Below, in pieces: positions 45,001 through 51,000 of a stretch of DNA of 64,000 nucleotides. A program made the position numbers. Source of the DNA: an uncultured Gemmatimonadaceae bacterium. GTDB lineage: Bacteria > Gemmatimonadota > Gemmatimonadetes > Gemmatimonadales > Gemmatimonadaceae. Position 1 is the stretch's first letter, and each line of letters begins with the position of its first letter. The DNA lies in assembly GCA_963822945.1 (NCBI GenBank), contig CAWGJO010000020.1, positions 224,001 through 288,000 on the forward strand, read 5' to 3'.

Positions 45001-48000
45001 ACCAGCGCCGGCTCGTCGCGGAACTGCATGGAGTGCAGCCGGTGGTACGCCCCGCGCAGATCGAGCAGTTCCTGATGCGTGCCCCGCTCCACGATCCGCC
45101 CGCGATCGAGCACGAGGATCTGGCTGGCGTGCGTGATCGTGGACAACCGGTGCGCGATCACGAACACCGTGCGTCCGGCCAGGAGGCGATCGATCGCCTC
45201 CTGCACGAGCCGCTCCGATTCGGTATCGAGCGCGGACGTGGCTTCGTCGAGAATGAGAATCGGCGGATCGGTGAGCAGGGCGCGGGCGATCGCGATGCGT
45301 TGCCGCTGGCCTCCCGAGAGGCGGGTGCCGCGCTCGCCGAGCACGGTGTCGTAGCCCTCGGGCAGCTCGGCGATGAAGCCGTGCGCGTTGGCCGCGCGGG
45401 CGGCGGCCTCCACCTGGGCGTCGGTGTACTGGCCGCTGGCACCGTAGGCGATGTTGCGGCGCACCGTATCGTTGAACAACACGGTATCCTGACTCACGAT
45501 CCCGGTGAGCGCGCGCAGCGACGGGAGCGTGATCTCGCGCGTATCGACGCCGTCGAGCAGAATGCGCCCGCCGGTCGGTTCGTAAAAGCGGGGGATCAGG
45601 TCGACGAGCGTACTCTTCCCCGCCCCGCTCGCGCCCACCAGGGCGACCACCTCGCCCTTGCGGGCAACGAAGCCGACGTCGCTGAGCACGGGCTCGTCGT
45701 CGTATGCAAAGGTGACCGCCTCGAACTCGATGTGATCGCGGAATTCGCTCACGTGTGTGCGGCCGCGGTCGGTGGCGGCCTCGGTGGGCTGATCGAGCAC
45801 GCCGAACAGCCGCTCGGCCGCTGCCATGGACTGCTGCGCCGTGGTCGGCATCTGCGAGAGTTGCTTGAGCGGCGGCAACAGCCGCATGACCAGAATCATG
45901 AACGTGATGAGCGTGGCGCCGTCGAGGGCCGGAACCGTCGCCGGCGTCAGCACCTCGCGGGCCCCGATCCACAGGATGACCACCGCCACGCCGGTGCCGA
46001 TGACTTCGGTGAGCGGCTGGGAGAGCACGGCCATACGCGCCACGCGCACCATGCCGCCCGAATATCGGTGGTTGGCGTCGGTGAAGCGCCCGTCCTCGTA
46101 CGGCTCGGCGCCGAACGACTTCACCAGGCGGATGCCGCTCACCACCTCCTGCAGCACGCTCGTGATCTCGCCGTAGTCGTTGCGCAGGCGGCGGTAGGCC
46201 CGGCGCAGCTTCCGCAGAATCGGCTGCAGGGCCAGCGTGAGCAGCGGCGCAACGATGAGCGACAGCACCGTGAGCTTCACGGAGATCGTGAGCAGCACGA
46301 AGACGGTGGCCACGATCTGTGCCGCGTTCTGGATGCTCTTGGTGACCATCTCCGTGACCAGCGCCTTCGTCTGCTCCGTGTCGGAGAGCACCTTGGAGAT
46401 CACCTGTCCGGTCTTGGTGCGCTGGAAATAGCCGAGCGGCAGACGCTGGAGGTGAGTGAAGACGCTGTCGCGAAGGTCCCGCGTGACGAGCTCCTGCAGC
46501 GAGGCCCCAAGCTGGCCGCCCATCCACACGAAGACGTTCTTGACGGCGACGATGATCACGATGACGACGATCATCGCCTCGAGCGACTGCAGGGGATGCA
46601 GCGGATCGAGGAACGCGCCCACCAGCCGGTCCTGGATCGCCTTGATCACCCCAGATGGGGGTGTCAGGGTGGACTGGTGGAACAGCGAGTTGAGAAACGG
46701 AATGAGGAGCGTGAACGAGAACGCGTCGAGCACCGCCGCGATCACGCTGCTGCCGATGGTCCCCGCCATGCGCCACCAGTGCGGGCGCAGGTAGCTCAGT
46801 AACCGGCGGTATTGGTTCATCAGCGGCGCGGCAGGGGGCGCACGACGTCGAACATGCGACCGCGCGCCCACCCGGCCGCGTCGCTCGCACGGCTCGTCCT
46901 CTCCTCCCGGAACCCGTTGTTACGCAGATACATGCGGGGGGTATCGGAAGCCTCCGCCTCGTCGTCCATCCTGAGGACGGAACTCGCCAGGTGCGCCATG
47001 TGTCCAGAATGTAGTCCTCCGAAAAACACCGAGCAACGGACTCCGCCTCGTCGCTGGCGATCGAGGCTCGCGCGCTCCAGATTGCCCGCGTGCCCGCCCC
47101 ACTTCCCCCGTACGCGGTCGTCCCGCCCGTCTTCCCCTTCCCGGCACTCGCCGCCGGCGCCGGACACGCGCCGCTCGGCGGCAACCGTGAAGTGCTGCTC
47201 GCCTGTTTCGTCGGCGCGCGCCTGGCACACGATGCCCTCGACACGGAGGCCGGCCCGGTGCCGCCGTCGCTGCGACGCACGCGCGCCCGCGGCGCACGCA
47301 CGTGGCTGGGCTCGCTGGCCGTTCCGACCGGAGTGCGGGGGCCGGTGGGCAAGCTCATCGACGCATCGGCCGCCGACGATTCGAGGGCGCTTCACCATGC
47401 CCTGCTCGCGGTGATCGCTGTCACGGCGGCGTACGTCGATTCCGCGTCACGTTCAGACCTCGAACGCCTGGCGCAAACTCTTGCCCCATAAGGCGATTCT
47501 GCTTGCCGGCCCCCGCCGGTGCCCCACAATATCCGCCATGGTCAGAAGCACCGACATCTCACCGATTTCCCAACTGCTCTCGCGCGTGGATGCGATAGCC
47601 GACGGCGCCCCCGCGCTCGACACCATTTCGAGCGGATTCCAGAGCGTCGATCAGATGCTCGGCGGCGGCCTGCGCCGCGGCGATCTGCTCGTGCTCGGCG
47701 GCGACGTCGGGAGCGGGAAGTCGGCGCTCGCCCTCGCCGTCGCGCTGCGCGTGGGCCGCGAGCGGGTGAATGCTGCGTTCTACTCCGGCGAGATGATGCC
47801 CGAGCGGGTGATGGAGCGCGCCCTGGCCATTGAGGGACGCGTCCGCGTCGACGACCTGCGCCAGGGATCGCTGGACGATCGGGCGCGCGCCGCCGTGGGA
47901 GCCGCCGCCGTCCGGTTGCGCGATACGATGCCGCGCATCGAGCGCATGCCCCGGGGCGGCGTTGCGGCCCTCGGCGCCGAACTGGAGTCGCAACCGGACG

Positions 48001-51000
48001 TCGAACTGCTGGTCGTCGACTCCCTGGAATCGCTGGTCGAGGGCACGCGCCCTCGTGACGAGGAGCTGGCCCAGGCCGTGGTGGACCTCAAGATGCTCGC
48101 CCTCCGCCGCAGCATCGCCGTGCTGACCACCACGCAGCTCCCCGGCCTCGCGCCGCGCGAGGACCGCCGGCCCCATCTCGACGACTTCGGTGCGCTGGGC
48201 GCCGTCAAACACCACGCCGACGTGATCCTGGCGCTCTATCGCGAGGCGATGTACGAGCCGGAACGCGAGATCGAAGGCGCCACGGAATTGCTCGTGCGCA
48301 AGAACCGCAACGGCGCTACGGGATACATCGACCTGTACTTCTACGCGCAGTGGATGCGGTTCGAAGACATGCTCGACCCCGACCGCTAGGAGAGCGCCCC
48401 ATGCGCATGCGCCGCCCACTGTTGACGTTCGGGCTCGCCGTCCTGCTCGGCGGCTGCGCCACCGCGGGCACCCTCGGCCCCGACGCGGTCGCGCACCTGG
48501 AACAGACGCGTGCCCAGGATCCGCAGAGCGCGTCGGCCAACCGGGCGCTCGGGATCGCGTACTACAAGCTCGGCCGGTACGCCGAGGCCCGTCAGGCCCT
48601 GCAGCGCGCCGCCGCCCTCGACTCGACCGACGGCACCACGCAGCTGTTCCTCGGCATGACGGCCGAGGCGCAGAACGACCTGCCGGCGGCACGGAGGGCC
48701 TACGCGTCGTACGTGCAGCACGGCCACACGTCGCGCGTCCGCCACCTGCTCGAAGAGCGGCTGGCCGCGCTCAGCCGCCGGGAACTCGTACTCGCCGCCA
48801 AGCAGGAGGTGGCCGACGAGGCCGCGCTGTCGTCAACGCCCGGCACGCCGAACACCGTGGCCGTGCTGCCGCTGAGCTTCTCCGGCAGCGACACCACCCT
48901 CCGGCCACTGGGCCGCGGGCTCGCCGAGCTGCTCACCACCGACCTTGCCCAGTCGCCGGCGCTCACCGTGGTGGAGCGCGTGCGCGTGCAGGCGCTGCTC
49001 CGGGAGATCAGGCTGCAACAGTCGGGCGCCACCGATCAGACCACGGGAGTCCGCGCCGGAAGAATTCTCCAGGCCGGACGACTCGTGGCCGGCGGCATCA
49101 CGCAGAGCGGATCGGACATCCGCGTGGACGCTCCGATCGTGAACGTGAGCAACGATCGAGTCGTGGGCTCGCCGAGCGACACGCGGACGCTCGACCAGAT
49201 CTTCACGATCGAAAAGAACGTCGCGTTCGGCATCTTCAAGACGCTCGGCGTCACGTTGACCACCGCGCAGCGCGACGCCATCGAGCAGCGGCCGACGAAG
49301 TCGTTGGCGGCGTTCCTGGCCTACAGCCAGGGACTGACGTTCGAGGACGAGGGCCGGTTCGACGAGGCGGCGCGGGCGTTTCAGCGGGCGGTCCAAATCG
49401 ACCCCGCATTCAACGCGGCGAAGCAGCAGGAACGGCAGACGTCCTCCGCATCGGCGGGGGACAACGTGACGCCCGTGACCATGGAGACGGCACTCCGGGG
49501 CACCGCCGAAGGCCGCATCATGCAGGGCGCCACCCGCGGGGTGGCGGTGGCAGGCGTTTCCAGCCGCGGGCTCGGGAACACGGCCCTGCTGGTGGCCGGT
49601 GGGCTCAACCCGCCCGCGGCCGGCGTGGCCGCGCTCGGAGGGGGCGTCACGAACACCACCCGCACGTCCGACCCGCGCAACCCGGGCGCCGCCGTCTCCG
49701 GCGGCGACAACATCACGAGAAGCATGACCGCGCTGGTGACGATTCTCGTGCTGATTCCACGACTGTGACGACGCCGCGCACGCACTTCCTGCTGCCGCTG
49801 CTCCTGCTCGGCGTCGCCGGACCGCTGGCCGCGCAGGGCGTGTGGGACACGAGCGCACGCCTGGGGCCCCAGATCGTGCAGTACGAACTCAAGGCGCCGA
49901 TCAACGAGAAGATCACGGAATTCGCGGTGCCGATCTACGTGCTGGTGCCGTTCACCGACGCGTTCAGTGTCGACGTCGGCACGGCCTGGACGAGCGCGCA
50001 GGTCACGGCCCGCGATGCCAACGGAACCTCCGTGAGCCGGCTTTCGGGACTCACGGATACGCAGATCCGCGCCAACTACGTGATCGGCACGGACTTCATC
50101 GTGCTCACGGCCGGCGTGAACCTCCCCACCGGGCAGACGAAGGTCACATCCGATCAACTGCCCGCCGCGACGCGCATCGCAAGCGATTTCCTGCTCTTTC
50201 CGATCAACGGATTCGGCGCCGGCGCCGGCGGTACGGGCGGGATTGCCGTGGCACGACCGCTCGGCGACTGGAACGTCGGGTTCGGCCTCGCCGTCCGGCA
50301 CTCGCTGGCCTACGACGCCTTCCAGGATCCCAACGGCAACCGGTTCCGCTTCGAGCCGGGCAACGAGTACCGCGGGCGCGTCGGGGTGGACCGGCCGTAC
50401 GGCACGGGGCGCATCTCGCTCGGCCTCACCTATTCGAAGTTCGGACGCGACCAGGCCGGCGGCTCGGTGTACAACACGGGCGACCGGCTGGTGACCCAGG
50501 CGTCGATCACGAACTCCGTGAACGGAGTGGACCTCACGGTGGCGGGGTGGGACCTGTTCCGCGCTTCGGGAATGCTGCTGGACTCGGCGGCCACCGGTCG
50601 CGAGAACATCACCGACCTCGGATTCGCGGCGGGCTTCCACACCGCGCCGCGCCTGGTGCTGGAGCCGAGCGTCGAGGGGCGCGTGTGGACGCAGGACGCG
50701 CAGCCGAGCAGCTACATGGCCACCGTCGGCCTCCGGCTGCGTGTCGATCTCGACGGCTACGCCGTCACGCCGTCCGCCGGGTACACGATGGGCCGGGTGG
50801 GCGGACCGGCGGGGACCGCCGGCCTCACCGGCTTTCACGCCGCGCTCGCCATCCGCGTCGGCGGCTACTAGCCGGCGGGCGGCGCAAACGGCGCTCGCCG
50901 GCGCCGTTGCGACTCACGCGCCGGCGCCCTCCGACTCGCCCGGTCGCCACGTTGGCCGCCTCCGCGGGCCGGGCTATATTGGCAGTCAGCGCCTCATCCC

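Follow-up and report, generated by a model that had tools for sequence, protein, structure and literature searches.

A chromosomal paralog of the replicative helicase DnaB that lacks the N-terminal domain is encoded on the forward strand at positions 47538 to 48389 of the window, a 64,000-nucleotide stretch of contig CAWGJO010000020.1 from an uncultured Gemmatimonadaceae bacterium. The paralog is probably a dispensable regulator and not a recombination helicase. By analogy with archaeal RadB, which assists RadA, the paralog may be an ATP switch that does not translocate along DNA but docks on rings of the DnaB type, and this is the reading that is tentatively preferred here.

The open reading frame is intact and encodes 283 residues, with a Pfam DnaB_C match over residues 30 to 277 (E 7e-42) and no Pfam match to the DnaB N-domain. 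A profile of that domain likewise found no match when run on the 1.5 kb preceding the ortholog at 66 loci. The linker-plus-motor architecture given by the first-pass annotation is thereby borne out, as is its separate canonical DnaB: the only PF00772 match in the genome lies inside a 468-residue dnaB on another contig (C24) whose product exceeds the TIGR00665 cut-off. Canonical dnaB and radA adjoin each other away from the paralog locus, and the loader DciA is also encoded. The structure model of the paralog has a pLDDT of 93 with low confidence for the last residues, and its top fold match is the DnaB C-terminal domain (6kza; Z 33.9, rmsd 6.2, 272 aligned). Databases mislabel the protein as "replicative DNA helicase", and a literature search found no published description of it, most subscription journals and supplements being outside the reach of that search.

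The elements needed for ATP binding and for contact between subunits are present as had been described. The Walker A motif (47700 to 47723) includes K61, found in 60/66 and 80/80 sequences; the six paralogs without this lysine belong to two genera. The catalytic glutamate E85 (47790 to 47792; 66/66 and 79/80) aligns with the glutamate of "EM" in E. coli DnaB, and both the Walker B aspartate D161 (48018 to 48020) and the trans lysine/arginine finger K255-x-R257 (48300 to 48308) occur in 66/66 and 80/80 sequences. In Geobacillus numbering, the DnaB residues K418 and R420 work in trans (PMC6391071). All six copies that have lost the Walker A lysine nonetheless retain K255 and R257, which would fit a finger that acts on a different subunit. 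Judging from the alignment, their retention may instead be structural, since E85, R94 and D161 are also invariant where K61 is lost. The ring-assembly element, a linker helix at residues 9 to 21 (47562 to 47600), is helical in the model and aligns with the canonical DnaB linker, with D18 in 59/66 paralogs. In the docking helix at residues 114 to 130 (47877 to 47927), the loader-contact tryptophan of Geobacillus and E. coli DnaB has given way to R117. Arginine is found there in 64/66 paralogs and never in canonical DnaBs of the order, which have phenylalanine or tyrosine in 52/60. The acidic C-tail (W-x-RFEDMLDPDR; 48351 to 48386) is a paralog-specific, conserved candidate docking motif; the end W[ML]RFEDMLDPDR is present in 72/80 loci, whereas canonical tails vary.

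The DNA-binding loop is changed, again in line with the earlier description. In the remodelled pore loop, residues 214 to 227 (48177 to 48218), LRESG has become FGALG and EQD has become KQH. Position 217, equivalent to Geobacillus R381, is glycine in 61/66 and 80/80 paralogs and never arginine, and the R365 position is arginine in 17/66, whereas both are arginine in 60/60 canonical DnaBs. The paralog thus has neither the R-E-x-G of the pore loop (Geobacillus R381/E382/G384), residues that touch DNA phosphates (PMC6391071), nor the arginine of QLxR. The gamma-phosphate sensors drift as well, with proline at position 200 in 32/80 and glutamate at position 224 in 38/80 paralogs, compared to glutamine in 60/60 canonical DnaBs. 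Because two pore arginines that are invariant in canonical DnaBs are lost or unconstrained, the paralog is, on sequence grounds, unlikely to be a DNA translocase. RadA, however, is a helicase without an equivalent of R381, which indicates that pore loops can be rebuilt, and the paralog might still grip DNA through R207, K223 and main-chain contacts at 218/220. The main DNA contact of RadA is K216, three residues past the sensor H213 (PMC11612176), and this site would correspond to position 203 of the paralog.

The paralog had been described as restricted to its order and fixed there. Larger samples uphold the restriction, as no copy was found at ortholog level in 103 genomes outside the order or by profile search in 55. 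Fixation does not hold: the paralog occurs in 142 of 197 genomes of the order (141 at ortholog level and one diverged copy) and has been cleanly deleted at 19 of the 20 loss loci examined; one 5' remnant was also noted. These tallies include the unpublished in-order genomes G157 and G182 (with the paralog) and G057 (without it) and the out-of-order genome G097, and no other claim depends on these four. The paralog is a vertically inherited, single-copy, chromosomal gene under purifying selection, with dN/dS of 0.12-0.17 in comparison with five congeners.

A role in recombination rather than at the replication fork had been proposed from the position of the gene upstream of yebC-ruvCAB. The negative half of this proposal stands, as the N-domain is missing, canonical dnaB and DciA are present, and the gene has been deleted repeatedly; recombination through Ruv is unsupported, and a role in DNA repair is possible. 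yebC lies within 3 kb in 37/40 wide loci but directly follows the paralog in only 13/40. Here a variable insert of two envelope genes at 48401 to 50871 separates the two, consisting of a TPR/CsgG lipoprotein gene and the gene for a 368-residue protein with a signal-peptide-like start and no family match. Beyond it are yebC, ruvC, ruvA, a frameshifted aminotransferase gene and ruvB (51026 to 55119), all on the forward strand, as is the insert. The yebC-ruv operon is older than the paralog; yebC-ruvC-ruvA-ruvB is intact and in the same order in 5/5 out-of-order genomes without the paralog, and yebC-ruvC-ruvA is intact at 19/20 in-order loci that lost it. The paralog-Ruv link is weak because the operon is intact without the paralog, because msbA upstream is as syntenic as yebC (37/40 each), and because both genes have their own -10-like boxes. 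The box of yebC is at 50975 to 50980, with a comparable hexamer in 35/44 and 50/65 loci. That of the paralog, CAATAT (47527 to 47532, one mismatch), is 5 nt ahead of the ATG and would form a leaderless promoter. TANNNT occurs exactly 5 nt ahead of the start in 40/67 further loci, and 4-10 nt ahead in 15/35 spaced and 4/24 overlapping loci of the first set (control 2% and 0%). An upstream dyad, CGAG-N9-CTCG, present in 12/43 genera, was rejected as an operator because the conserved sequence around it looks like the coding strand of a divergently oriented gene, presumably for a response regulator. No Rfam match was obtained at 44000 to 58000.

The usual upstream neighbour of the paralog is a 133-residue, six-helix protein of no known family (47090 to 47491, forward strand; pLDDT 94). 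Pfam, NCBIfam, PHROGs, PADLOC, Foldseek, VIA-align and Atlas gave nothing clear for it, and its best fold match had a Z of 7.5. It is found in 192/197 genomes of the order and in 0/103 outside. The neighbour is a usual but not obligate partner of the paralog, since it is nearly universal in the order and unchanged where the paralog has been lost: it is retained in about 50 such genomes, where its conserved columns are 94% and 97% preserved.

If the paralog is a DnaB-derived pseudo-helicase serving as an accessory switch, it would oligomerise through contacts of the linker and docking helices, and would bind and probably hydrolyse ATP without threading single-stranded DNA. Its conserved new surfaces (R71, R90, E93, R117, E236 and the acidic C-tail) would act on another protein. 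The most plausible action would be to cap or join a DnaB-type ring and tune its loading, opening or release; such a job would be conditional, hence dispensable. Archaeal RadB, which lacks the N-domain, provides the working analogy, being like the Rad51 paralogs a paralog of a core DNA motor cut down to the ATPase domain (TIGR02237; PDB 2CVF, 220 residues). RadB differs in being derived from RadA and not from DnaB, and a mediator role for the paralog would be by extension from it. RadB promotes RadA polymerisation and acts as a mediator on its parent (PMC5480776). R117 and other paralog-specific residues could equally keep the paralog apart from DnaB. A partner footprint, meaning columns conserved across 30 genomes that carry the paralog but relaxed across 30 that lack it, was found at 0/456 positions of DnaB and 0/444 of RadA, a comparison of low power because both proteins are constrained anyway. 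A bolder form of the proposal is speculative and rather improbable: a DNA-blind bacterial pseudo-subunit, the first of its kind, that would insert into or cap DnaB rings by its linker helix, lend its arginine finger in trans and gate loading or release.

Alternatively, the paralog could be the ATPase subunit of a two-protein complex in which the basic helical neighbour binds DNA on its behalf or stands in for the N-domain. Both proteins are restricted to the order, they lie next to each other at 79 of the 80 further loci, the neighbour stop and paralog start overlap in many first-set loci, and their mean net charges are opposite (+5 and -6). The paralog is seldom without the neighbour, yet two loci lack it upstream (G272, L189) and at one the two are 8 kb apart. 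The persistence of the conserved neighbour without the paralog, the lack of any fusion in 80 loci and the frequent -10 box of the paralog itself also argue against such a complex. Neither profile (best E 0.6) nor Pfam searches matched the neighbour to the DnaB N-domain, and that domain, the DnaG C-domain and PriC were absent from its best 50 fold rows, though a weaker resemblance may lie below them. A two-protein complex is considered unlikely. An active homo-hexameric helicase or branch-migration motor that cooperates with RuvABC is a little less likely again. It would account for the complete set of ATPase motifs, the linker helix, the ring-type fold and the proximity of yebC; phages carry N-domain-less DnaB_C proteins, and RadA is reported to be a DnaB-type motor used in recombination (PMC5512693). 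The pore arginines that a branch-migration motor would need are nevertheless lost, the sensors drift, the Walker A lysine is missing from the copies of two genera, and the Ruv operon is older and intact without the paralog. No co-loss was seen for DciA (present in 5/5 genomes), or, in genomes with versus without the paralog, for RecG (22/24 and 24/24), ComM (23/24 and 23/24), PriA (24/24 and 24/24) or RadA beside dnaB (28/30 and 28/30).

Repurposing for nucleotide sensing away from DNA metabolism, of the kind that KaiC or ArlH represent for the RecA fold, falls between these two in likelihood. The loss of DNA-contact side chains alongside conservation of the ATP site and of new surfaces, the long stem, the envelope genes flanking the locus and the scores of the P-loop block on KaiC and ArlH models are consistent with it. 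However, the paralog retains the DnaB-specific RP-x-L-x-D loop base, R207 and the linker and docking helices, the envelope inserts differ between loci, and there is no candidate client. A decaying relic, or a decoy for DnaB-targeting phage proteins, is very unlikely. Many losses, the 5' remnant, two copies that are either split within a single contig or lengthened by read-through (G043, L031) and diverged copies of 34-40% identity might point that way, but the low dN/dS and 22 columns invariant across 66 sequences do not, and the gene occupies a fixed core locus outside any defence island.

Bacterial DnaB rings are taken to consist of six identical subunits that are controlled externally by loaders. 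The long-kept paralog has the ring and ATP hardware but has given up its hold on DNA; this makes it a natural separation-of-function variant that could reveal control of the DnaB ring from inside. Its reach is limited, as it is dispensable and confined to one order, of which it is a clean marker.

The origin of the P-loop region may differ from that of the rest of the protein. The block at residues 38 to 85 around Walker A scores 29.5 bits on sms, 29.3 on phage DnaB and 24.1 on DnaB, and so resembles RadA/Sms as much as DnaB. Diagnostic columns within 42 to 84 side with RadA (5/5), and those from residue 86 onward with DnaB (33/34). It is possible that a DnaB scaffold received this block by grafting from the radA of the tandem dnaB-radA pair. 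A tree of the block joins the paralog with RadA (SH-aLRT 84), a grouping with DnaB not being rejected (p-AU 0.53), and the score difference for a RadA chimera is 0.63 (interval -0.14 to 1.47). Motifs of the block are also shared with KaiC domains and some viral DnaBs. In the tree of the whole motor the stem of the paralog has 2.77 changes per column, its attachment is unreliable and does not place the origin, and the split is host-like. A phage or plasmid origin was considered and rejected; there is no close relative among phages or plasmids, and the best single pieces have 24-40% identity to ordinary DnaBs.

Among known systems, DnaB (TIGR00665; PDB 4ESV/2R6A, 6KZA) shares with the paralog the linker and docking helices, the RecA-type motor and the ATPase motifs with the trans K-x-R finger, and the DnaB of the same genome is 31% identical to it in a profile alignment. 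The paralog scores far below the cut-off of that family (146 against 385 bits) and differs from DnaB in its missing N-domain and pore arginines, in the arginine that takes the place of the loader-site tryptophan, and in its conserved acidic tail and its dispensability. RadA/Sms (TIGR00416; PDB 8RXC) is likewise a DnaB-type core without a primase-binding domain, with a similar P-loop block and histidine allowed at both sensor positions. Unlike RadA/Sms, the paralog has no C4 zinc finger, Lon-like C-terminal domain or KNRFG, and the sms model matches only residues 29 to 97 (36 versus 403 bits). The motor-only architecture recurs in phrog_243 (273 positions), NF004629/PRK05973 (237 positions) and RSF1010 RepA (PDB 1G8Y). 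Core synteny, the host-like tree split and PADLOC matches that are weak and confined to the P-loop speak against an anti-phage defence or mobile helicase. From these compact DnaB-like proteins, some of which belong to mobile elements, the paralog is set apart by its vertical, single-copy chromosomal inheritance.

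The DnaB paralog is encoded on the forward strand at 47538-48389, which gives a stop-free translation of 283 amino acids, and it is a genuine gene rather than a fragment. Its match to Pfam DnaB_C covers residues 30-277, the Pfam models of the DnaB N-domain find no match in it, and only the C-terminal halves of the DnaB family models align, with scores far below the cut-offs. The structure model (pLDDT 93) shows a RecA-type core and, at residues 9-21, a linker helix; the fold that it matches best is the C-terminal domain of E. coli DnaB (Z 33.9). These results bear out the first-pass annotation, which described a second DnaB-type protein made of linker and motor only. 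The whole source genome holds one DnaB N-domain match, and at 66 ortholog loci the 1.5 kb before the gene contain none. A length of 280-283 amino acids is usual among the 120 homologs listed, and dN/dS against five congeners is 0.12-0.17. Motor-only DnaB-like proteins are already known and were also matched here in phage and family databases. A literature search found no description of the present family, which is chromosomal, spans the order and has its pore dismantled.

When mapped by alignment to Geobacillus DnaB, paralog residues E85, R94, D161, K255 and R257 are invariant in the 66 orthologs and the Walker A lysine K61 is kept in 60, which upholds the earlier claim of a retained Walker A, catalytic glutamate, Walker B and arginine finger. 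The six copies without K61 fall in two genera, g8 (L062, L065, L066 and L067) and g39 (L056 and L057), and all keep the K-x-R finger. Genus g8 retains the gene in all 13 genomes and the four copies read lack the lysine, a candidate pseudo-ATPase lineage. In Geobacillus DnaB, according to PMC6391071, R381, E382 and G384 touch DNA phosphates, and K418 and R420 act in trans to complete the ATP site. At the R381 position the paralog carries G in 61/66 orthologs and in all 80 further loci, and R in none, which agrees with the changed DNA loop described earlier; an R at the R365 position is found in 17/66. Sixty canonical DnaBs of the order have R at both positions throughout. The gamma-phosphate sensors given in PMC11612176 are H213/H228 of RadA and H465/Q494 of T7; the paralog has mainly Q or H there in the first set, and P in 32/80 and E in 38/80 of the second set, which is rich in close relatives. 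Near-invariant residues new in the paralog (R71, R90, E93, R117 and E236), together with an acidic tail, suggest that a protein surface is conserved. R117 stands in place of the docking-helix tryptophan of Geobacillus and E. coli DnaB; mapped by offset, this tryptophan would be equivalent to Trp291 of V. cholerae, which has been linked to the binding of DciA (PMC13696075).

It is possible that the paralog is a mosaic with a RadA-like block, residues 42-84, on a DnaB scaffold. All five columns separating DnaB from RadA in this block agree with RadA, and 33 of 34 from residue 86 onward agree with DnaB. The RadA-versus-DnaB score gap of this P-loop block is not significant, family models tie on it, a tree test does not separate the two descents, and KaiC domains and some viral DnaBs carry motifs like these. 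Judged by the features that define the two families, the paralog belongs to neither DnaB nor RadA. Canonical dnaB of the source genome lies on contig C24 (above the TIGR00665 cut-off) with radA directly behind it (above that of TIGR00416), a tandem at 5194-7994 of locus L001 that is found in 56/60 order genomes. The second pore-loop position of canonical DnaB is D instead of E in 37 of 60 order genomes (L291-L350).

Ortholog-level matches (E at most 1e-39) were sought in 300 other genomes of the phylum, 197 within the order Gemmatimonadales and 103 outside it. Orthologs occur in 141/197 (four of them broken across contig ends or frames) and in 0/103. In 55 of the 56 in-order negatives, a 66-sequence profile recovered a further, diverged ortholog and a 5' fragment, and in 55 of the 103 out-of-order genomes it matched only long frames or the P-loop alone. 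Where relatives carry a name, the records are of Gemmatimonadaceae and Gemmatimonadales. The paralog is absent from whole genera (for example g4, 0/5; g9, 0/4; g44, 0/5; g60, 0/5), six genera are mixed, and 19 of the 20 loss loci read carry no trace of it; in 8 of the 20, yebC lies at most 200 nt from the stop of the upstream gene. The gene had been described as fixed in the order and missing from other orders; the restriction stands but the fixation does not. In a tree of 18 paralogs and 21 canonical DnaBs, where the attachment point of the paralog clade is unreliable, the paralogs form a single clade (support 100/100) whose stem measures 2.77 changes per column. A subclade of family f1 within it is well supported, and this pattern is consistent with vertical inheritance from the ancestor of the order.

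The paralog had also been placed upstream of yebC-ruvCAB. Nearness holds, since in 37/40 wide loci yebC is no further than 3 kb away and on the same strand, but direct adjacency is found in only 13/40; msbA is upstream in 37/40. The yebC-ruvC-ruvA-ruvB order is identical in 5/5 paralog-free genomes outside the order, so the paralog was inserted next to an older operon. At one locus (L060, genome G050) an inverted yebC-ruvC-ruvA block immediately follows the paralog. Just upstream of the paralog, at 47090-47491 on the forward strand, a six-helix, Arg-conserved protein of 133 amino acids is encoded, for which family and fold comparisons gave no match. This neighbour marks the order almost without exception (192/197 genomes, 0/103 outside) and could be the more central of the two genes; it precedes the paralog, never fused, in 79/80 further loci.

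The favoured reading, held tentatively, is that the paralog is a non-translocating ATP switch whose client is another protein, probably a ring of the DnaB type. It would oligomerise through its linker and docking helices, use ATP without translocating on DNA, and aid its client as RadB promotes RadA assembly (PMC5480776). Against this reading, G220, R207 and K223 are still kept, and RadA unwinds DNA without an R381 equivalent. No partner footprint on canonical DnaB or RadA emerged from a low-power comparison of 30 genomes with and 30 without the paralog. The neighbour may bind the paralog, and a complex of the two is a modest possibility; two loci have an intact paralog without the neighbour upstream, and in 19 paralog-free genomes the neighbour retains 94-97% of its conserved alignment cells.

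A sensor outside DNA metabolism is slightly less probable than such a complex. An active motor linked to Ruv, for which the intact ATP site and the nearby yebC speak and the replaced pore arginine and older operon do not, is slightly less probable again. Among the order genomes compared, the presence of RecG, ComM, PriA, RadA and DciA shows no dependence on the paralog. That the paralog is a relic or decoy is the least probable of these readings; the many losses would suit it, and the low dN/dS would not.

The hexamer TANNNT stands exactly 5 nt ahead of the paralog start in 40/67 loci and 20-70 nt upstream of yebC in 35/44 and 50/65 loci (3-9% in coding controls, a lenient control); the yebC hexamer is present in 9/18 loss loci. 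We infer separate promoters, that of the paralog putatively leaderless; where genes touch, transcription could also read through into ruv. The -10-like hexamers at 47078-47083 and 47527-47532, 5-6 nt before the start codons of two adjacent genes, suggest that leaderless translation is common in the lineage. Family f1 has a recurring insert of a TPR/CsgG lipoprotein and a 368-amino-acid protein of no family (48401-50871). A PLP aminotransferase gene between ruvA and ruvB (52911-54064) is broken over at least two frames and is either a pseudogene or an assembly error. Between ruvB and queA are two oppositely oriented arrays of a 16-nt unit (55139-55248 and 55371-55579), and REP-like sequence resembling this unit occurs at about 20 sites in the genome.
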